A stretch of DNA of 64,000 nucleotides. Source: Escherichia coli. GTDB lineage: Bacteria > Pseudomonadota > Gammaproteobacteria > Enterobacterales > Enterobacteriaceae. The notes under the pieces were generated by a model that saw nothing but the letters and a program-made list of their open reading frames with translations, had not been told where the DNA came from and made no database searches. The DNA is taken from assembly GCF_024700885.2 (NCBI RefSeq), contig NZ_CP117016.1, one strand, 5' to 3'. The translations under genes and the position numbers were made by a program. Positions 7,383 through 17,040 of this stretch are shown here, piece after piece (within the stretch, counting starts at the first letter, position 1; the number at the start of each line of letters is the position of its first letter).

Positions 7383-7958
7383 ATGCCCCTCTTACACCTG
7401 CTCCGCCAGAATCCGGTGATTGCTGCCGTTAAAGATAATGCCAGCCTGCAACTGGCAATCGACTCTGAATGCCAGTTTATTTCCGTGTTGTACGGCAATA
7501 TCTGCACCATTAGTCAAATCGTTAAAAAGATTAAAAATGCCGGAAAATATGCTTTTATTCATGTTGATTTGCTGGAAGGCGCGTCAAATAAAGAAGTGGT
7601 GATTCAGTTTTTGAAACTGGTGACAGAGGCGGACGGAATTATCAGTACCAAAGCCTCAATGCTGAAAGCAGCAAGAGCGGAAGGTTTTTTCTGTATTCAT
7701 CGCCTGTTTATTGTTGATTCAATTTCGTTTCACAACATTGATAAGCAAGTTGCGCAATCGAATCCGGATTGTATTGAGATCCTGCCAGGCTGTATGCCCA
7801 AAGTGCTGGGCTGGGTGACGGAGAAAATCCGCCAACCGCTGATTGCTGGCGGGCTGGTGTGCGATGAAGAAGATGCGCGTAATGCGATTAACGCAGGTGT
7901 CGTGGCGCTTTCCACCACGAATACCGGGGTCTGGACGCTAGCGAAAAAATTGCTTTGA
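7383..7958 (+). CDS. ygcP: GlpP-family (glycerol-3-phosphate-responsive type) transcription antiterminator-like protein
   Basis: 191-aa ORF, MPLLHLLRQNPVIAAVKDNASLQLAIDSECQFISVLYG...; AAGGA SD upstream; family assignment by recall. Confidence 0.8.
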   Translation: MPLLHLLRQNPVIAAVKDNASLQLAIDSECQFISVLYGNICTISQIVKKIKNAGKYAFIHVDLLEGASNKEVVIQFLKLVTEADGIISTKASMLKAARAEGFFCIHRLFIVDSISFHNIDKQVAQSNPDCIEILPGCMPKVLGWVTEKIRQPLIAGGLVCDEEDARNAINAGVVALSTTNTGVWTLAKKLL

Positions 7959-7993
7959 CGGGATAATCGTAACGAATTGAATTTGTGTGATTT

Positions 7994-8100
7994 GTAGGCT
8001 GCACGCCACATCCGACATTCAGCGCCTGATGCGACGCTTGACGCGTCTTATCAGGCCTACAAGTCCCCAGCCCAGAACCGTAGGCAGGATCATCCGGCAA
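7994..8100. repeat. REP/BIME cluster between convergent ygcP and ygcQ
   Basis: Contains GCCTGATGCGACGCTTGACGCGTCTTATCAGGCCTAC (8024-8059) plus flanking REP-like GTAGGC palindromes. Confidence 0.7.
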
Positions 8101-8104
8101 CACG

Positions 8105-8965
8105 TTATTGGCAATCTGCGTGAATGTTTGTCACCAGTGCCTCCAGCACCACTTTCCAGTCATCAACCACGCCAACATCTGCCTGTGAAAATACCGCTGC
8201 GCTGGCGTCATGATTAATCGCCACCACAAACTTGCTATTGCGTACGCCCGCCATTAACGCTGCTGCGCCGGAAGCGCCAACAACAATACACACCTCAGGT
8301 GCCAGCAGATGTCCGGAAATACCAATCACTTTTTCAGCATCAACGCCACCGTTCATCACTCGCGCCCGACTGTAGCCCACTTCGGCTCCCAGCTTTTCTG
8401 CCAGCATAGCGATTTCCTGGTTATCTGCCTCTCCGCCCTGCCCCACCACCAGCACCCGTCTGGCTTCAGCTAATGGGTCGCGGGTAACATTTTTCAGGTT
8501 TTCTATGCTAACCAGCCAGTCGGGAAGCGCACCTGGGACAATGTTCAGTTGCTGCATACCAGAGGGCAACGTGGCGTTTTTATCTGCTCCCGCCTGACGT
8601 GCCAGCGAAAGGCATAGCGGGCGTTTTTCTGTTTGCAGCGTCGCCGTTAGCGCATTTCCCCAGTGGGATTTGCGCACGCTTACGGTTGGAATATCTAACG
8701 AAGTCACCTGGCAGATGCTTGCACCATGTAAACGCCAGGCCAGCCGGGTCGACAGTTCATCGCCAAACGTTCCCGGCGGAAAGAGAACAACGTCCGCTGG
8801 CGTTCGCTGCCACTGTTCCACCAGCGCATCCAGCACCTGTTCCGCCACTACGGGCTGAGGTTCAATATGCCAGTGTGCCAGGGTACAACCGCTGAAATCC
8901 TGTTCTGCCAGCCAGCTCGCTATTGCGGCATTCTCCTGATTTATTGTCACAATTGCGATATTCAT
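8105..8965 (-). CDS. ygcQ: electron transfer flavoprotein alpha-subunit-like protein (FixB-like)
   Basis: ORF 8105..8998 trimmed to ATG at 8965 (286 aa, MNIAIVTINQENAAIASWL...). Confidence 0.85.
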   Translation of the reverse strand: MNIAIVTINQENAAIASWLAEQDFSGCTLAHWHIEPQPVVAEQVLDALVEQWQRTPADVVLFPPGTFGDELSTRLAWRLHGASICQVTSLDIPTVSVRKSHWGNALTATLQTEKRPLCLSLARQAGADKNATLPSGMQQLNIVPGALPDWLVSIENLKNVTRDPLAEARRVLVVGQGGEADNQEIAMLAEKLGAEVGYSRARVMNGGVDAEKVIGISGHLLAPEVCIVVGASGAAALMAGVRNSKFVVAINHDASAAVFSQADVGVVDDWKVVLEALVTNIHADCQ

Positions 8966-9741
8966 GGCTGCATCCTTTGGCGTAAATAGTCCTGCCATAG
9001 CTTTTGCGCTTTTTCTGCTACCGTTTGCCCATCAATCAGCGTCGCTCCGCGTTGTTGCTCTGCTCTTGCCAGTTGCAGACACTGCATCGCTGGCGATTCG
9101 GCAGCAACAGTTTTACGGATAATTTCTGCTTTCCCCGCCGCCATACGCTGGCGCATTCCCGGTACTGGCAAGGCCACTTCACCGCACTGACGCACGGCAA
9201 TCACCGCAGGCAAGCGAACCCGGCAACAGCGCAGCCCGTTTTCAGTACGCTGTTCGAGGGTGATAAACGGCGCGTCGAGAGTAAAACGCTCCACCTGGGT
9301 GAAGCAGGGCCAGCCCAGCATTTCCGCCAGCAAAAATGGCGTTTGCCCATTCTGCCCTTCGCTGCTTTGGCAGCCGGTAATTATCAGATCCAGCGGATTC
9401 TGACGCTGCCATTCGGCAATATGGCGAGCGACAAATTCCGGCGCAAAGCGCAGATCTGCCGCCGTCTCCAGCAATACAGCTTCCTCAAACCCAAGCGCCA
9501 TGAGATAGCGCAGCCAGTGCAACGCCCGTTCATCCCCCATGCTCAACGCGGTTAAGGACATCGACGTACCGTTTTTTCTCTGCGCCAACAGCAGCGCGGC
9601 GGCAGCCTGTTCATCAGCACCGAGTAAACTTCGCAGAAGCGAAACATCCGGTCCGCTATTACCCTGAGCCGCCGCCTGCCACTCTTTTTCCGCCAGCATT
9701 CCGGCATCCGGTTCGGCTTTAAACGCTAACAGAATGTTCAT
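8962..9741 (-). CDS. ygcR: electron transfer flavoprotein beta-subunit-like protein (FixA-like)
   Basis: ORF 8962..9747 (GTG-initiated in the track) trimmed to ATG at 9741 (259 aa, MNILLAFKAEPDAG...); stop overlaps ygcQ start by 4 nt. Confidence 0.85.
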   Translation of the reverse strand: MNILLAFKAEPDAGMLAEKEWQAAAQGNSGPDVSLLRSLLGADEQAAAALLLAQRKNGTSMSLTALSMGDERALHWLRYLMALGFEEAVLLETAADLRFAPEFVARHIAEWQRQNPLDLIITGCQSSEGQNGQTPFLLAEMLGWPCFTQVERFTLDAPFITLEQRTENGLRCCRVRLPAVIAVRQCGEVALPVPGMRQRMAAGKAEIIRKTVAAESPAMQCLQLARAEQQRGATLIDGQTVAEKAQKLWQDYLRQRMQP

Positions 9742-11056
9742 TCGCACCTCCTACATTTCCCGCCGCCACCAGCGGGAGTGCTTTGGTTTCTGGTGCCCAT
9801 AGCCAGGTCACAACAAAACCAACCAACAACACTGCCGCCAGGAGCATTAAGGTGACTTGCATTCCCCACTGCGCCAGCACCCACGGCAGCAGGCCAGTAC
9901 TTACCGCCGCCCCCAACCGACTCATGGCGGTGGCAAAACCGACGCCCAGCGAGCGAATGTCAGTAGGAAAACTTTCCGCAGGCAAAATGCCCACCAGATT
10001 ACTGACTGCCGAAATGGTGGTGCTGAAGAGAACAAAAAGCAGCAGCGTTAATGAACTGCCGGAAGGCAAACAAGCCATCACTACCAGCGTTGCCGCCAGC
10101 AGCAAAAAACTTCCCAGCAAAAATTTGCGATGTGCCAGCAGGTGCGTCAGAACTAATCCCAGCAGCGCACCCACAATTAACAACGCATTAAGCATCAGGC
10201 TAGCGGTCAACGCATCTTCCAGACCAATAGTCTGGGCGATAGTTGGCAGCCAGGTATAAATCACAAACCATGGGATTACGAGGCAGACAAAGAAGACGCT
10301 GTTAAACGCCGTGCGCCGCCAGTAGCGCGAAGAGAACAAGGTTTTGATGTGTTTATGGGTCGCCGTTGCCACTTCATCGCCCAGTAAAACATGGGGACCA
10401 AAATAGCGATGCACGATAGCGTGAGCTTCTGCAAAACGCCCCTGCCGCAGTAGCCAGCGTGGCGATTCTGGCGTTCCCCAGCGTAATAACGTAATCAACA
10501 ATGCGGGCAGAGCTGCCGATGCCAGCAGCCAGCGCCAGGCCTCCGGGCTTTCGCTAATAAAGTGATGTCCGGCAATACTTGCCAGCACATAGCCTACGGT
10601 CCACACCACGCTGAATGCGCCCAGCAAAATACCGCGATGGCGGCGCGGAGAAAATTCAGCCAGCAAGGTGTGGCCTACTGAGTAATCGCCTCCCAGACCA
10701 ATGCCGATCAAAATGCGCAGTCCAATAAGATGCTCTGGCGTGGTGGCAAAAAATTGTAAGAACGAAGCGAGCGTAATCAGCAAAAAGCTGAAGGTGAAGA
10801 TTTTTTGCCGACCAATATGGTCGGAGATCCACCCCAAAACCAGGCTACCGATAAACAGGCCAAGTAGCGCCGAGCCGCCAATCATTCCCGCCATAAACGG
10901 CGTCAGTTGCATGGCGGGTGTAAGCTGAATAATGGCGTAACCAATGACGCCGAGAACATAACCGTCGGTCAGGTGCGCGCCGAAAGTGAGCGCAGCAATT
11001 CGACAGTGAAAACGGTTAAGCGGTAAATCATCCATTCGCACCGGTGAAGTGTTCAT
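9719..11056 (-). CDS. ygcS: MFS transporter (sugar-porter type)
   Basis: ORF 9719..11149 trimmed to ATG at 11056 (445 aa, MNTSPVRMDDLPLNRFHCRIA...); multiple hydrophobic spans. Confidence 0.85.
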   Translation of the reverse strand: MNTSPVRMDDLPLNRFHCRIAALTFGAHLTDGYVLGVIGYAIIQLTPAMQLTPFMAGMIGGSALLGLFIGSLVLGWISDHIGRQKIFTFSFLLITLASFLQFFATTPEHLIGLRILIGIGLGGDYSVGHTLLAEFSPRRHRGILLGAFSVVWTVGYVLASIAGHHFISESPEAWRWLLASAALPALLITLLRWGTPESPRWLLRQGRFAEAHAIVHRYFGPHVLLGDEVATATHKHIKTLFSSRYWRRTAFNSVFFVCLVIPWFVIYTWLPTIAQTIGLEDALTASLMLNALLIVGALLGLVLTHLLAHRKFLLGSFLLLAATLVVMACLPSGSSLTLLLFVLFSTTISAVSNLVGILPAESFPTDIRSLGVGFATAMSRLGAAVSTGLLPWVLAQWGMQVTLMLLAAVLLVGFVVTWLWAPETKALPLVAAGNVGGANEHSVSV

Positions 11057-11086
11057 CTTTACCCCTTCATTGTCCGGTAATAAGAA

Positions 11087-11108
11087 CGGCTTCTCGCCTG
11101 AGAAGCCG
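11087..11108 (-). terminator. intercistronic hairpin between ygcU stop and ygcS start (possible partial terminator or processing site)
   Basis: 9-bp stem CGGCTTCTC/GAGAAGCCG with 4-nt loop; on the minus strand followed by UUCUUAUU. Confidence 0.3.
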
Positions 11109-11148
11109 AAAAGGCAACGCCCCTCATAGCGGAACGCTGCCTCACACA

Positions 11149-12603
11149 TTATTTTTCAATCGGATAGATAGTACCCGTATTCATAATGCCGTTAGGATCG
11201 AACTGTTTTTTCAGACCTTCCAGCAACGTCCACGCGCTGCCGTGTTCCAGTTTGCTCCAGTGAACGCGATGTTTACCAATACCGTGGTGGTGCACCATCG
11301 AACCGCCGAGGCGAATGGTTTCTTCGCAGATGATTTTGTTGAGCGGATTGTGGTACTTGTCGATTTCCTCTTCCGGCTTACAGTCGACAACGTTGTAGTC
11401 GTAAACGAAGTACATGTTGGTGCCGTTCTGGTAGCTGTGAGAGGAGTGACCGCCCAGCATGGTGATGTCGTCGGCGTGCGGGAACTCGGTACGAATACGG
11501 TTAATAACGCTTTCGTAGATTTCGTGGATGCAGCTCCAGCAGCCGGACACTTCGGTGGTAAAGCCCATGTTGCCGGTTTTGAGGATCTGCACACGTTCAG
11601 CGGCCACTTTATCCGGCCCCCAGTTCAGGTGATTAAACCAGGTTTCGATCAGCTTGCTGTCCACTCGCTGGCATTGCGGGTAACGTGCCACGATTTCCGC
11701 AATCCCTTCGCCTGTCGCCTTCGCAATGCGAGGGTTACCTTCAGCCATAAAGATCAGCACACATTTACCATCGGCAAAATGGGTGAAGTGTTGGGTGCCA
11801 TCTTCAGCGTCATACAAACGAGCGATCGACGGACGATACCCTTCCACCATGATTTCACGCAGGATGTTGAAGCCGGTTTTCATGTCTTCCAGGATATAGC
11901 CGTAGAAGAGGTTGTTTTCCGGGGTGAACTTAAAGATTTTCACAGTTACTTCAGTGATATAGCACAATGCACCTTCGTTGCCGATGATGATGTGACGAAT
12001 GTCCGGGCCTGCCGCGCGGCGTGGTACGTTTTTAATGCGTGTTACGGTGCCATCAGCCAATACTGCTTCCAGACCAACGACCATATCTTCGATTGCGCCG
12101 TAGAGTGTGGAGAACTGCCCGATACTGCGGGTTGCTACCAGGCCGCCCATCTGCGCCAGCGGCTTTGACTGCGGAGAATGCCCCGTGGTGTAACCTTTTT
12201 CACGCAACGCGTTTTCCAGCACCTCCAGCGGAACGCCACATTGCGCCGTCGCCTGCATATTCTCAATATCAATATTAATGATTTGATTCATGGCGGAGCC
12301 GTCGAGCACCACCGAGTTTTCCACAACGGTTTCCAGCCCACCTTCAGTGGCGGAAGCGCCGGTACGCGGCACACCGTTAATTTTGTGCGCATTCATAAAA
12401 TTCAGCACACGGGAGACTTGTTCTGTGGAACCGAGTTTTACGACCGCTGCCGGAATCGGCAAAGTATAAATACCATGAATATCCGGAAATTTACGAAAAC
12501 GGTCAATACTGTTTTTCTTTAATACTGTTTCATCGGTAATTACGCGATCTGCACCAACAATTTCCTTTAGCTGGTCGACAATCGCTGCGCGAGATAAAGA
12601 CAT
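11149..12603 (-). CDS. ygcU: FAD-linked oxidase (FAD-binding PCMH type; alkyl-DHAP synthase / D-lactate dehydrogenase-like)
   Basis: 484-aa ORF, MSLSRAAIVDQLKEIVGADRVITDETVLKKNS... Confidence 0.85.
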   Translation of the reverse strand: MSLSRAAIVDQLKEIVGADRVITDETVLKKNSIDRFRKFPDIHGIYTLPIPAAVVKLGSTEQVSRVLNFMNAHKINGVPRTGASATEGGLETVVENSVVLDGSAMNQIINIDIENMQATAQCGVPLEVLENALREKGYTTGHSPQSKPLAQMGGLVATRSIGQFSTLYGAIEDMVVGLEAVLADGTVTRIKNVPRRAAGPDIRHIIIGNEGALCYITEVTVKIFKFTPENNLFYGYILEDMKTGFNILREIMVEGYRPSIARLYDAEDGTQHFTHFADGKCVLIFMAEGNPRIAKATGEGIAEIVARYPQCQRVDSKLIETWFNHLNWGPDKVAAERVQILKTGNMGFTTEVSGCWSCIHEIYESVINRIRTEFPHADDITMLGGHSSHSYQNGTNMYFVYDYNVVDCKPEEEIDKYHNPLNKIICEETIRLGGSMVHHHGIGKHRVHWSKLEHGSAWTLLEGLKKQFDPNGIMNTGTIYPIEK

Positions 12604-12672
12604 AGTAATTCCTTCCTGATAATAAAAATGGAATAATCATTAATAAGAGAAAACAGAAACCACCGTTATGGA

Positions 12673-13458
12673 TTAGCGCACTAAATAACCGCCATCGACC
12701 ACTAATAAATGCCCGTTAACATAATTTGAAGCCGGACTTGCGAGGAATACGGCTGCGCCCATTAAATCCTGAGTATCGCCCCAACGGTTTGCCGGAATAT
12801 GATCAAGAACGCGCTGGTTAGTTTCTGGATTACTACGGGTCGCCAGAGTGATATCGGTAGCGTAATATCCCGGGGCAATACCATTCACCTGAATATTATA
12901 TTGACCTAATTCATCGCAATAGGCTTTGGTGAATCCGGCAAGAGCATGTTTAGTGGCAGAATAAGCAGGTGACCATTGTCCACCTAAGTAAGAGAACAAT
13001 GAACAGATATTAATGATTTTACCGCTTTTCTGCGGGATCATAATTTTTGCAGCTTCATAGCTTAACTCGAATGCGGCGGTCAGGTTCACATCAATCATTG
13101 GATCCCAGTCGGCACGACCGAAGTCCAGCACCTTATTCAGCTTACAAATACCGGCATTGTTAACCAGAATATCGACGGTACCGAAACGTTCGCAACAGGC
13201 GGCGATTATCTTCTGCGGCGCGCCTTTTGCGGTGATATCCACCTGCATGAAGTCTACTTCAACACCCTGTTTTTCAATCATTTCCTTTGTTTCGCCGTTA
13301 TCTTTGACGAAGCTTGGAATAAAGATATTTGCGCCTGCTTTGGCCAGCGCCATGGCAAATGCCTGGCCTAAACCGCTATTCCCGCCGGTAACAATTGCGG
13401 TTTTACCTTTCAGGGAGAAAAAATCCATTGAGAACGCATTGAGAGATTCGATTGACAT
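12673..13458 (-). CDS. ygcW: short-chain dehydrogenase/reductase (KduD-like)
   Basis: ORF 12673..13533 trimmed to ATG at 13458 (261 aa, MSIESLNAFSMDFFSLKGKTAIVTGGNSGLG...); Rossmann TGGNSGLG motif; GGAG SD 8 nt upstream. The longer ORF-track N-terminus is encoded by the leader terminator (poly-Phe from the T-run). Confidence 0.85.
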   Translation of the reverse strand: MSIESLNAFSMDFFSLKGKTAIVTGGNSGLGQAFAMALAKAGANIFIPSFVKDNGETKEMIEKQGVEVDFMQVDITAKGAPQKIIAACCERFGTVDILVNNAGICKLNKVLDFGRADWDPMIDVNLTAAFELSYEAAKIMIPQKSGKIINICSLFSYLGGQWSPAYSATKHALAGFTKAYCDELGQYNIQVNGIAPGYYATDITLATRSNPETNQRVLDHIPANRWGDTQDLMGAAVFLASPASNYVNGHLLVVDGGYLVR

Positions 13459-13482
13459 AGTTAGCTCCAATTTCCGTAAGGC

Positions 13483-13530
13483 AAAAAAAAAGAAAGGTAA
13501 CTTCCCCCGCGAGAGGGAAGTTACCTTTCT
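13483..13530 (-). terminator. intrinsic terminator in the 5' leader of ygcW (candidate attenuator)
   Basis: Perfect 16-17 bp stem (13491-13507 / 13514-13530, loop CGCGAG) followed on the minus strand by a run of 8-9 U, ending 24 nt upstream of the ygcW ATG. Confidence 0.6.
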
Positions 13531-13582
13531 CATTATCTCTGGTAACTGGAGATAATTTTTATCATAAGGGCATAATCGCTAA

Positions 13583-13598
13583 TGTGATCGTAATCACA
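13583..13598. promoter_or_regulatory. consensus CRP-binding site TGTGA-N6-TCACA in the ygcW/yqcE divergent region
   Basis: aaTGTGAtcgtaaTCACAgt read directly; both half-sites match consensus perfectly. Confidence 0.55.
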
Positions 13599-13704
13599 GT
13601 GTGATATTCGAATTGTCAAATAATTTTAAAAAGCAGAAGCGTGATTACTCTCACACAACACCACTGCTTTCCATGTTATTTCTTATTGCAATTACTAGAG
13701 ACCT

Positions 13705-13752
13705 GAGAAAAGTAATCCACCTGAAAGGGCGGCTTACTTTTCTCTTTTTTTT
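13705..13752 (+). terminator. intrinsic terminator in the 5' leader of yqcE (candidate attenuator)
   Basis: Perfect 11-bp stem GAGAAAAGTAA / TTACTTTTCTC (18-nt loop) followed by T8 (13745-13752), ending 24 nt upstream of the yqcE ATG. Confidence 0.55.
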
Positions 13753-13776
13753 GTCTATTACAAATGGGAATACGAT

Positions 13777-15054
13777 ATGCAACACAACTCATGTCGCCGT
13801 TGGATAACCCTCGCGATAATTAGTTTTAGCGGCGGCGTTAGTTTCGACCTGGCTTATTTACGTTATATTTATCAAATTCCCATGGCGAAATTTATGGGAT
13901 TCAGCAATACCGAGATAGGTTTAATAATGAGTACCTTTGGTATTGCGGCTATTATTCTTTATGCCCCCAGCGGCGTTATTGCCGATAAATTTTCACACCG
14001 CAAAATGATTACTTCCGCGATGATCATTACCGGATTACTGGGTCTGTTAATGGCAACATATCCACCGCTGTGGGTAATGCTCTGTATTCAGGTCGCCTTT
14101 GCGATAACGACGATTTTAATGCTGTGGTCGGTGTCGATTAAAGCCGCCTCGTTGCTGGGCGATCATAGCGAGCAAGGGAAAATTATGGGCTGGATGGAAG
14201 GGCTGCGCGGCGTCGGTGTAATGTCGCTGGCGGTGTTTACCATGTGGGTCTTTTCTCGCTTTGCACCGGATGACAGCGCCAGCCTGAAAACGGTCATTAT
14301 TATCTATAGTGTGGTTTACATTCTGCTGGGCATTTTGTGTTGGTTTTTTGTTAGCGATAACAACAACCTGCGCAATACCAATAACGAAGAAAAACATTCA
14401 TTCCAGCTTAGCGACATCCTGGCCGTTTTGCGCATCAGAACCACCTGGTATTGCAGCATGGTGATTTTTGGTGTCTTCACCATCTACGCCATTCTGAGTT
14501 ACTCCACCAACTATCTGACCGAAATGTACGGCATGTCGCTGGTGGCGGCGAGCTACATGGGGATTGTGATCAACAAAATCTTCCGCGCGCTGTGCGGCCC
14601 ACTTGGTGGCATTATCACCACCTACAGCAAAGTGAAATCCCCTACCCGCGTGATCCAAATCCTTTCCGTACTCGGCTTGCTGGCGTTAACTGCCCTGCTC
14701 GTCACGAACTCTAACCCGCAATCGGTCGCGATGGGGATTGGCCTGATTTTACTGCTGGGATTCACCTGTTACGCCTCACGCGGGCTGTACTGGGCCTGCC
14801 CTGGCGAAGCGAGAACACCGTCTTACATTATGGGCACCACGGTAGGTATTTGTTCGGTGATTGGATTCCTGCCGGATGTCTTCGTTTACCCGATTATCGG
14901 CTACTGGCAAGACACCCTGCCCGCTGCAGAAGCCTACCGCAATATGTGGCTGATGGGCATGGCGGCGCTTGCCATGGTGATCGTCTTTACCTTTTTGCTG
15001 TTCCAAAAAATTCGTACTGCTGATAGCGCCCCTGCTATGGCTAGCAGCAAGTAA
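13777..15054 (+). CDS. yqcE: MFS transporter
   Basis: 425-aa ORF, MQHNSCRRWITLAIISFSGG...; many hydrophobic spans. Confidence 0.85.
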   Translation: MQHNSCRRWITLAIISFSGGVSFDLAYLRYIYQIPMAKFMGFSNTEIGLIMSTFGIAAIILYAPSGVIADKFSHRKMITSAMIITGLLGLLMATYPPLWVMLCIQVAFAITTILMLWSVSIKAASLLGDHSEQGKIMGWMEGLRGVGVMSLAVFTMWVFSRFAPDDSASLKTVIIIYSVVYILLGILCWFFVSDNNNLRNTNNEEKHSFQLSDILAVLRIRTTWYCSMVIFGVFTIYAILSYSTNYLTEMYGMSLVAASYMGIVINKIFRALCGPLGGIITTYSKVKSPTRVIQILSVLGLLALTALLVTNSNPQSVAMGIGLILLLGFTCYASRGLYWACPGEARTPSYIMGTTVGICSVIGFLPDVFVYPIIGYWQDTLPAAEAYRNMWLMGMAALAMVIVFTFLLFQKIRTADSAPAMASSK

Positions 15055-16591: not shown

Positions 16592-16605
16592 TGAACATAC
16601 CTGAA

Positions 16606-16877
16606 TGGTTATCCCCGCTGACGCGGGGAACTCGCCAGTGCCTGGTCATATGTGTAACACCTATCCGGTTTATCCCCGCTCGCGCGGGGAACTCTTGCTG
16701 TATAGAGATTATCGGCGTGGGATTGTCGGTTTATCCCCGCTCGCGCGGGGAACTCGTTTGCGGCTTGCAAACATTTTAATGCGTATTCGGTTTATCCCCG
16801 CTCGCGCGGGGAACTCCCAGCCCGACACAAATAATGCAGCATTGCGCGCGGTTTATCCCCGCTCGCGCGGGGAACTC
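16606..16877 (-). CRISPR. orphan type I-E-like CRISPR array: 5 repeats (29 bp; leader-distal one degenerate, 28 bp) and 4 spacers of 32 bp
   Basis: Repeats at 16606-16633 (degenerate TGGTTATCCCCGCTGACGCGGGGAACTC), 16666-16694, 16727-16755, 16788-16816, 16849-16877, consensus CGGTTTATCCCCGCTCGCGCGGGGAACTC. Spacers: GCCAGTGCCTGGTCATATGTGTAACACCTATC; TTGCTGTATAGAGATTATCGGCGTGGGATTGT; GTTTGCGGCTTGCAAACATTTTAATGCGTATT; CCAGCCCGACACAAATAATGCAGCATTGCGCG. No cas genes in the window. Confidence 0.9.
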
Positions 16878-17040
16878 TCTAAACATAACCTATTATTAAT
16901 TAATGATTTTTTAAGCCAGTCACAATCTACCAACTTTACAGTATCACACAAACAACACATCTATTATGTTAAAGAGCACTTAATCCATTGATTGAAAAGG
17001 TAAATATTTAAAATAACTCTATACAAACTAAAATCTACCA
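16878..17040 (-). other. AT-rich CRISPR leader adjacent to the intact terminal repeat
   Basis: AT-rich sequence abutting the non-degenerate end of the array; extent approximate. Confidence 0.5.

Follow-up and report, generated by a model that had tools for sequence, protein, structure and literature searches.

In Escherichia coli, terminators acting inside an operon have been described at the rplL-rpoB site and, as T1, between rpsU and dnaG. Hairpins located between cistrons can also act on the message itself: in malEFG, intercistronic REP hairpins (malE-malF) stabilise the upstream mRNA. As for processing by RNase III, this enzyme needs roughly 20 bp of double-stranded RNA, that is, about two helical turns. 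The distance between a terminator and the preceding stop codon is relevant as well. Specifically, the tR2 terminator is nearly fully repressed by the terminating ribosome when it lies 5-9 bp from the stop, its efficiency being under 10% near the stop and about 90% beyond 30 bp; masking is established for terminators lying within about 10 bp of the stop codon, and uncoupling translation relieved the repression (Li et al. 2016, PMC4824070).

The ygcW operon of E. coli carries a hairpin, here called hairpin 2, between ygcU and ygcS. Together with the interrupted U-tract UUCUUAUU that follows it, hairpin 2 is, with a probability that we put at roughly 0.6, a leaky intrinsic (Rho-independent) terminator at the boundary of the ygcWU and ygcSRQ modules. 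This judgement is drawn from sequence comparison, and what it proposes is intra-operon termination of a routine sort, hairpin 2 being an unexceptional representative of an established class. If working as proposed, the hairpin would set the ratio between the YgcW and YgcU dehydrogenases on one side and YgcS, YgcR and YgcQ (transporter and electron-transfer flavoprotein) on the other. Such a ratio, set within a catabolic cluster, would matter for expressing these y-genes or assigning a function to them.

The ygcU-ygcS gap in E. coli

The stretch of DNA analysed here, referred to as the window, comprises 64,000 nucleotides. In it the ygcW operon spans positions 8105-13458, and the region is 100% identical to E. 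coli strain 1190 (NZ_CP023386) and about 97% identical to K-12. Convergent with the operon is ygcP, whose product is a G3P_antiterm (GlpP-family) protein (Pfam, E = 1e-62). The ygcU-ygcS gap measures 92 nt (11057-11148) and, from the ygcU stop to the ygcS start codon, its minus strand reads TAA-UGUGU-GAGGCAGCGUUCC-GCUAUGA-GGGGCGUUGCCUU-UUC-GGCUUCUC-AGGC-GAGAAGCCG-UUCUUAUU-ACCGGACAAUGAAGGGGUAAAG-AUG. The features discussed below are collected in Table 1.

Two further elements of the neighbourhood were recorded. The convergent ygcP-ygcQ gap holds what is probably a REP-type element, seen as a sub-threshold Rfam match to naRNA4 (7985-8057, plus strand) that scores 29.4 bits where the gathering score is 59.5. 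The annotation of strain 1190 places a CRISPR array in the interval from ygcE to queE, corresponding to about 16605-16877 of the window (L002:424-696); a 128-aa open reading frame at 16605-16991 probably just runs over the CRISPR repeats.

Table 1. Features of the ygcW operon and of the ygcU-ygcS gap (window positions, except for the inserts of relatives, which are given by locus)
Feature	Position	Strand	Description
ygcW	12673-13458	minus	SDR dehydrogenase (RefSeq annotation, Pfam)
ygcU	11149-12603	minus	FAD-linked oxidase, 484 aa; 5' neighbour of the gap (RefSeq, Pfam)
ygcS	9719-11056	minus	MFS sugar-type transporter, 445 aa; overlaps ygcR; 3' of the gap (RefSeq, Pfam)
ygcR, ygcQ	downstream of ygcS	minus	ETF beta, ETF alpha (RefSeq, Pfam)
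ygcU stop TAA	11151..11149	minus	in this strain overlaps (as TAATG) the ATG of a spurious ygcS ORF of 476 aa
Hairpin 1 (Escherichia-specific)	11143..11111	minus	GAGGCAGCGUUCC-GCUAUGA-GGGGCGUUGCCUU, up to 13 pairs
UUUU run, then C	11109..11112	minus	after hairpin 1 (tail TTTTCGGC); first two U may extend the stem
Hairpin 2	11108..11087	minus (sense)	CGGCUUCUC-AGGC-GAGAAGCCG; 9-bp stem, 4-nt loop
Interrupted U-tract UUCUUAUU	11086..11079	minus	directly 3' of hairpin 2
Candidate third stem	11078..11040	minus	ACCGG...UGAAG with CUUCACCGGU of ygcS codons 3-6; encloses Shine-Dalgarno and AUG (predicted)
ygcS Shine-Dalgarno GAAGGGG	11068..11062	minus	start codon ATG at 11056..11054
ygcW leader motif	13563..13479	minus	R1, 99 bits
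yqcE leader motif (second copy)	13674..13755	plus	R1, 57 bits
ERIC-like inserts	L007:5456-5640, L011:5456-5708, L057:5456-5628		short form at L009:3689-3799

Hairpin 2 lies exactly where a reading of this DNA made earlier from the sequence alone (hereafter the sequence-only reading) had placed a hairpin with a 9-bp stem. Folded alone it reaches -14.9 kcal/mol (z = -4.5), and none of 200 shuffles was equally stable. The nine pairs of the stem are perfect, six of them being G-C, and the structure has the properties expected of the stem-loop of an intrinsic terminator (GC-rich, about 5-14 bp, a loop of 3-8 nt, on the transcribed strand). In its immediate surroundings the minus strand reads GCCUUUU CGGCUUCUC AGGC GAGAAGCCG UUCUUAUUACCGG, so that the stem is followed by an AU-rich single-stranded stretch. 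Intrinsic terminators carry a U-rich tract of about 7-9 nt adjoining the 3' side of the stem. Within the tract UUCUUAUU, six of the eight positions are U, with interruptions at positions 3 and 6, and the hairpin has no A-tract upstream. Since the tract is interrupted and the A-tract is missing, the efficiency of the terminator could be low. A terminator scan ranked hairpin 2 third-strongest within 6.1 kb. Perfect 9-bp stems with loops of 3-8 nt occur at about nine places in the window, against 1.9 +/- 0.9 in dinucleotide shuffles, and the 92-nt gap folded as a whole gives -47.8 kcal/mol (z = -4.65).

A search of Rfam found no match at the junction (cmscan of 7900-14000, E <= 1). Two other identities were rejected for this structure. 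A REP/BIME element is contradicted by this result, by the copy number of the 92-nt gap, whose matches in 5092 E. coli genomes have a median of one per genome, and by hairpin 2 itself, which is devoid of the REP consensus and carries a U-rich tail. An internal promoter within hairpin 2 (TTCTCA-16-TATTAC, spotted by eye) is weak and its -10 element is without the final T; it is unreported by the promoter scan and is not kept in relatives.

The analysis brought to light two features beyond those of the sequence-only reading. The first is a tandem hairpin located upstream, hairpin 1, with the core GGCAGCG/CGUUGCC. It begins 7 nt past the ygcU stop, has a predicted energy of -21.3 kcal/mol (z = -4.8) and shows a 1-nt indel in its loop between the window and K-12. 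Hairpin 1 was found in all Escherichia species representatives and is absent from the other genera, in which hairpin 2 or an ERIC-type insert fills that position. Because MAFFT aligns the Escherichia segment AGGCAGCGU, although weakly, with the 3' part of the ERIC-like inserts described below, hairpin 1 might be a remnant of an ERIC-type insertion, a suggestion that is speculative.

The second feature is the extension of ygcS annotations over hairpin 2. The start of this gene is inconsistent among annotations: the protein has 445 aa in K-12 and in strain 1190, and 469 aa in many RefSeq E. coli genomes (WP_000147666.1, PGAP), where the start is located 21 nt past the ygcU stop, in the loop of hairpin 1. 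If ygcS did begin upstream, either at this position or, in this strain, at the TAATG that opens the 476-aa frame, hairpin 2 would be coding sequence. In favour of such a barely credible reading, the upstream frame is open across the entire gap in Escherichia, and the RefSeq protein is annotated from it. However, this strain and K-12 differ by a 1-nt indel and hence in which upstream ATG is in frame, the gap of other genera measures 52-62 nt and is not a multiple of 3, many of these gaps contain in-frame stops, and the upstream start codon is missing in most of them. In addition, the substitutions found in the stem keep pairing, not codons. An N-terminal extension of YgcS across hairpin 2 was therefore rejected on the basis of the frame-shifting indel, the in-frame stops and the non-triplet gap lengths. 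On the contrary, the downstream ATG is preceded by a strong Shine-Dalgarno sequence and, together with the N-terminus MNTSPVRMDD, is kept across genera, unlike the frame upstream of it; the cross-genus comparison supports the 445-aa start as the probable one. In terms of annotation, the upstream ygcS starts of many RefSeq E. coli genomes would make the coding sequence cover a non-coding hairpin.

Further downstream, the candidate third stem would enclose the ribosome-binding site of ygcS. Its predicted energy is -10.2 kcal/mol, with a z-score of only -1.9, and no pair of this stem is altered on both sides in the alignment, that is, no covariation was found; the block TTACCGGA..ATGAAGGGG is kept in sequence in the Escherichia/Citrobacter/Klebsiella clade. 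A sequestration of the ygcS Shine-Dalgarno sequence and AUG by this predicted stem is unproven. In one strain, E. coli CFSAN018748, an IS200C element is inserted directly after the UUCUUAUU tail (L067:2569-3275; equivalent to about 11078/11079 of the window), parting the two hairpins from the ribosome-binding site of ygcS.

Conservation of hairpin 2 among relatives

A scan with one genome per species provided 63 YgcU loci, and the hairpin region of 31 distinct Enterobacteriaceae junctions was aligned with MAFFT. A recognisable CGGCUUCyC-loop-GrGAAGCCG is shared by Escherichia, Citrobacter, Klebsiella, Raoultella, Superficieibacter, Enterobacter, Pluralibacter, Mixta, Yokenella and others. In Cedecea and Buttiauxella the GC stem at the junction is a related one. 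The more distant Enterobacterales Limnobaculum, Budvicia, Serratia and Rahnella carry, in the same place, GC hairpins that are unrelated to it, some of them followed by T runs.

Within the 31 junctions, 92.1% of the cells of hairpin 2 are paired, against 40-60% in controls in which the 3' partners were slid. Five of the ten pairs are altered on both sides, C-G alternating with U-A and G-C at the base of the stem and with U-G and U-A near its top, and the observed covariation score was reached by none of 500 shuffles. As for the cells that depart from Watson-Crick pairing, on the sense strand 24 are G.U and 6 are A.C. This predominance of G.U points to a selection that operates at the RNA level on the mRNA; neither a DNA operator nor an antisense RNA would fit it well. 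Hairpin 2 is under RNA-level selection in the sense orientation and is conserved as a structure rather than as a sequence. The loops vary among relatives both in sequence and in length (3-7 nt), from which it follows that nothing reads the loop. RNAalifold, applied to the same alignment, recovered just four central pairs with an energy near zero, a weak result that we attribute to gaps and to three mis-registered rows of the Cedecea type; the assessment of conservation therefore uses the explicit counts of pairs given above.

The sequence following the stem is also informative. In the 8 nt past the stem a mean of 4.4 T was counted, against 1.8 expected from local composition by a naive test that ignores phylogeny. 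The T-rich tail is kept in every genus and ranges among relatives from 3/8 to 8/8 T: the lowest value is found in C. koseri and Enterobacter sp. 10-1, and several Citrobacter and Pluralibacter relatives reach T6-T8, with T7 in C. sedlakii. Runs of T6-T8 with matching upstream A-tracts occur, for instance, in L010, L015, L016 and L019. The sequence-only reading had proposed a partial terminator or a processing site; its first half is strengthened by the compensatory changes, by the count of G.U over A.C and by the presence of the T-tail in all genera.

An ERIC-like repetitive insert of 110-200 nt separates the ygcU stop from the hairpin in K. spallanzanii, in Enterobacter sp. 10-1 and in R. terrigena. 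C. koseri has a shorter form.

Three contigs in the collection have titles far removed from this family, namely a Planctomycetota MAG (L004), a Chryseobacterium sp. (L026) and a SAR324 MAG (L052), and carry the locus with YgcU 76-99% identical. L004 and L026 especially look like cases of contamination or mis-binning.

Apparent read-through into ygcSRQ and the position of the ygcU stop

The order ygcW-ygcU-ygcS-ygcR-ygcQ holds in Enterobacteriaceae and in several other Enterobacterales. In Firmicutes and Desulfobacterales, the ETF genes come straight after ygcU. A ygcWU pair without ygcSRQ is present in some Enterobacterales (Erwinia, Pantoea, Izhakiella, Ewingella, S. proteamaculans and S. liquefaciens), and in several of them a terminator-like hairpin follows ygcU; the other Enterobacterales loci that were fetched have the arrangement ygcWU-hairpin-ygcSRQ. 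From these three arrangements we infer that the hairpin marks the end of the ygcWU unit. Moreover, a consensus scan of the sense strand between ygcU and ygcS found no sigma-70-like promoter, and the transcription of ygcSRQ therefore appears to depend on read-through. Both the place of hairpin 2, which is that of the operon-end terminator in relatives lacking ygcSRQ, and the empty promoter scan before ygcS favour the terminator half of the earlier proposal.

The mechanism that we envisage is the following. Having left the ygcW promoter and passed the leader, RNA polymerase would transcribe the GC-rich stem, which would fold at the moment when the active site holds the U-rich tract as a weak rU:dA hybrid. 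A fraction of the complexes would then release the RNA and the remainder would read through, read-through being the only apparent source of ygcSRQ transcription. The released ygcWU mRNA would end in a stable hairpin and should thereby also be shielded from 3' exonucleases. In Escherichia, the polymerase would meet two hairpins in tandem, hairpin 1 (followed by UUUUC) and then hairpin 2. A partial terminator, as in the sequence-only reading, is the best-supported account of the junction. The analysis shows the structure and its conservation, the T-rich tail, the empty promoter scan and the synteny; that termination takes place at hairpin 2, that it is partial, and that it lowers ygcSRQ relative to ygcWU so as to give differential expression, is what we infer.

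Protein identity forms a steep gradient within the operon. When E. coli is compared with Citrobacter (L010, L012), it is 96-97% for YgcW, 93% for YgcU, 88-91% for YgcS, 72% for YgcR and 62-63% for YgcQ; YgcP, encoded divergently, is 96-97% identical in the same comparison. The fall along the operon would fit a lower expression of the downstream genes, but it is only suggestive, as other causes are possible. As regards transcript ends, the Term-seq data for MG1655 contain no 3' end for ygcU, ygcS or ygcR, and are uninformative there because transcripts stop at the leader (Adams et al. 2021). Specifically, a strong 3' end was mapped at K-12 position 2900311(-), which precedes the ygcW ATG by 38 nt, with an intrinsic terminator score of 15.8, no dependence on Rho and no characterised element noted (Adams et al. 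2021). With the operon shut at the leader in LB, 3' ends at the junction would be invisible in that dataset. In K-12 coordinates, the tail of hairpin 2 is at 2897893-2897901, that of hairpin 1 at 2897923-2897926, and the leader terminator (13531..13481 of the window) at about 2900298-2900346. SMRT-Cappable-seq has no entry for the junction. A search of the literature returned no paper in which ygcU and ygcS appear together; ygcU alone led to a D-serine study that is unrelated to the junction.

A purely mRNA-stability role could also conserve a hairpin. According to such an explanation, hairpin 2 would block 3'-to-5' exonucleases after an endonucleolytic cleavage occurring downstream, and ygcWU would outlive ygcSRQ. 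We regard this as unlikely. The hairpin is stable and conserved, the stretch after the stem is AU-rich and single-stranded, E. coli has an imperfect U-tract and some relatives a poor one, and the tandem hairpins of Escherichia would make a strong exonuclease barrier. Nevertheless, a pure exonuclease barrier needs no U-tract, and the T-rich tail is kept even where the flanks are not; several relatives have textbook terminators, composed of A-tract, stem and T7-8; and the element is single-copy and is not a REP. The processing site suggested by the sequence-only reading received no specific support, as the stems of 9 and 13 pairs are too short for RNase III, which was rejected on this ground, and no RNase E-type motif was seen by eye. 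The stability role and termination are compatible and not mutually exclusive.

The second issue concerns the ribosome that completes ygcU. Counted from the ygcU stop, the start of the hairpin is at 5-17 nt, mostly at 5-9 nt, in 22 of the 31 junctions. In Escherichia, hairpin 2 starts 40-41 nt past the stop and the near position is held by hairpin 1; taking Escherichia and the ERIC-bearing lineages together, the distance between the stop and hairpin 2 is 40-204 nt. The ancestral spacing of 5-9 nt therefore falls in the ribosome-sensitive range, and hairpin 2 of E. coli falls outside it. This raises the question of a conditional terminator, in which the ribosome finishing ygcU would mask the nearest hairpin, so that ygcSRQ would be transcribed only if the translation of ygcU keeps step with transcription. 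The spacing in the 22 junctions and the position of hairpin 1, together with the almost full repression measured for tR2 at 5-9 bp from a stop codon (Li et al. 2016), speak for such a control. Against it, hairpin 2 of Escherichia and of the ERIC-bearing lineages is outside the masking range and its U-tract is not significantly weaker: the difference in U-tract strength between the displaced and the near hairpins of the 31 junctions goes in the expected direction, with a Mann-Whitney p of about 0.15-0.2 (n = 9 vs 22, not phylogenetically corrected). Furthermore, the distance from stop to hairpin is not diagnostic, because operon-end terminators often lie near stop codons too. On balance, we consider a conditional terminator of this kind distinctly unlikely.

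The boundary terminator could also be combined with translational gating in an evolutionary scenario that we put forward tentatively, as a possibility well short of probable. The ancestral hairpin would have been masked by the terminating ribosome; in Escherichia a new hairpin would have taken the masked site and the old one would have been pushed to 40 nt, yielding a two-step arrangement. If gated in this way, ygcSRQ, and hence the transporter and the ETF, would be transcribed only from actively translated messages, and the two Escherichia terminators would differ in character, hairpin 1 being ribosome-sensitive and hairpin 2 constitutive and weak.

The leader RNA and comparison with described systems

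A second RNA element precedes the operon. The leader of ygcW contains the motif AGUUACY-AGAGA-NN-(A)UGAGAAARGUAAC...stem...T8-9, which is almost invariant from Escherichia to Serratia, Erwinia and Pantoea, and a second copy belongs to the divergent yqcE leader. In the ygcW leader, a terminator helix of 17 pairs has 96.8% of its cells paired, and a competing antiterminator helix, AGUUACY with RGUAACU, has 99.6%; columns 23, 39 and 75 of the leader alignment show a three-way co-variation. Additional copies occur at L063:3807-3897, L055:1531-1609, and L064:576-654 and 2414-2493, and in the ygcU clusters of Firmicutes the copies adjoin GlpP-family (ygcP-like) genes. The motif is absent from Rfam 15, and no description of it was found in the literature searched. 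It is a likely RNA target of YgcP, and it represents a more valuable lead than the junction hairpin. Between the two divergent leaders lies a perfect CRP-type palindrome, TGTGATTACGATCACA, at 13583-13598; ygcW and yqcE are reportedly mentioned in papers on the prediction and binding of CRP sites.

Another role proposed for the junction is that of a second target of the GlpP-family antiterminator YgcP; hairpin 2 would then be a regulated terminator belonging to the same system as the ygcW leader. Such a role may be considered since ygcP encodes a G3P_antiterm protein, the ygcW leader is a terminator/antiterminator switch, and the apical pattern CUUCyC...GrGAAG followed by T's is common to the leader terminator and to hairpin 2, both of which lie in the ygcW operon. 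This pattern matches twice in the 64 kb, where 0.07 matches would be expected, a comparison to be read with the fact that it was chosen post hoc from both sites. The rest of the evidence makes the proposal highly improbable. In particular, the covariance model R1, built here on the leader, which scores 99 and 57 bits on the ygcW and yqcE leaders, gives no match on the junction at E <= 1 with default filters and, with filters off, just 2.6-5.8 bits (E = 0.26-1.3 in 451 nt), these matches spanning only model positions 38-69. Upstream of the junction hairpin, the AGUUACY-AGAGA-GAGAAA block is missing, and the junction hairpin of the Cedecea type loses CUUCCC while the leader keeps it. Membership of the junction hairpin in the leader-attenuator family was rejected, given R1 scores not exceeding 5.8 bits and a CUUCyC..GrGAAG pattern without co-variation between leader and junction. 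Besides, the leader motif has several components that the junction does not, namely a stem of 17-19 bp, a T9 run, the invariant AGUUACY-AGAGA-N-GAGAAA block and the competing antiterminator helix.

Coming back to the leaky terminator at the module boundary, the closest described systems resemble it each in part. One of them is the class of terminators that the ribosome represses near a stop codon, represented by the tR2 position series of Li et al. (2016, PMC4824070) and by the pyrBI attenuator to which that paper refers. In most genera the hairpin begins 5-9 nt past the stop, as hairpin 1 does in Escherichia at 7 nt, which is inside the span of tR2 repression; unlike the near-stop members of that series, hairpin 2 of E. 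coli is at 40 nt, past the masking range. A stable intercistronic hairpin such as this one could give differential mRNA abundance, as the REP/BIME of malE-malF does; in contrast to the latter, hairpin 2 is single-copy (5092 genomes), lacks the REP consensus and has a U-rich tail. With the sites of rplL-rpoB and rpsU-dnaG, the ygcU-ygcS junction shares an intercistronic GC-rich stem-loop followed by a U-rich tract, a gap in which the consensus scan found no promoter and an apparent dependence on read-through. It differs from them in the tandem hairpins of Escherichia, in the interrupted U-tract and in the leader terminator that gates the operon. By analogy with rplL-rpoB and rpsU-dnaG, a stepped expression along one operon would be expected at ygcU-ygcS.
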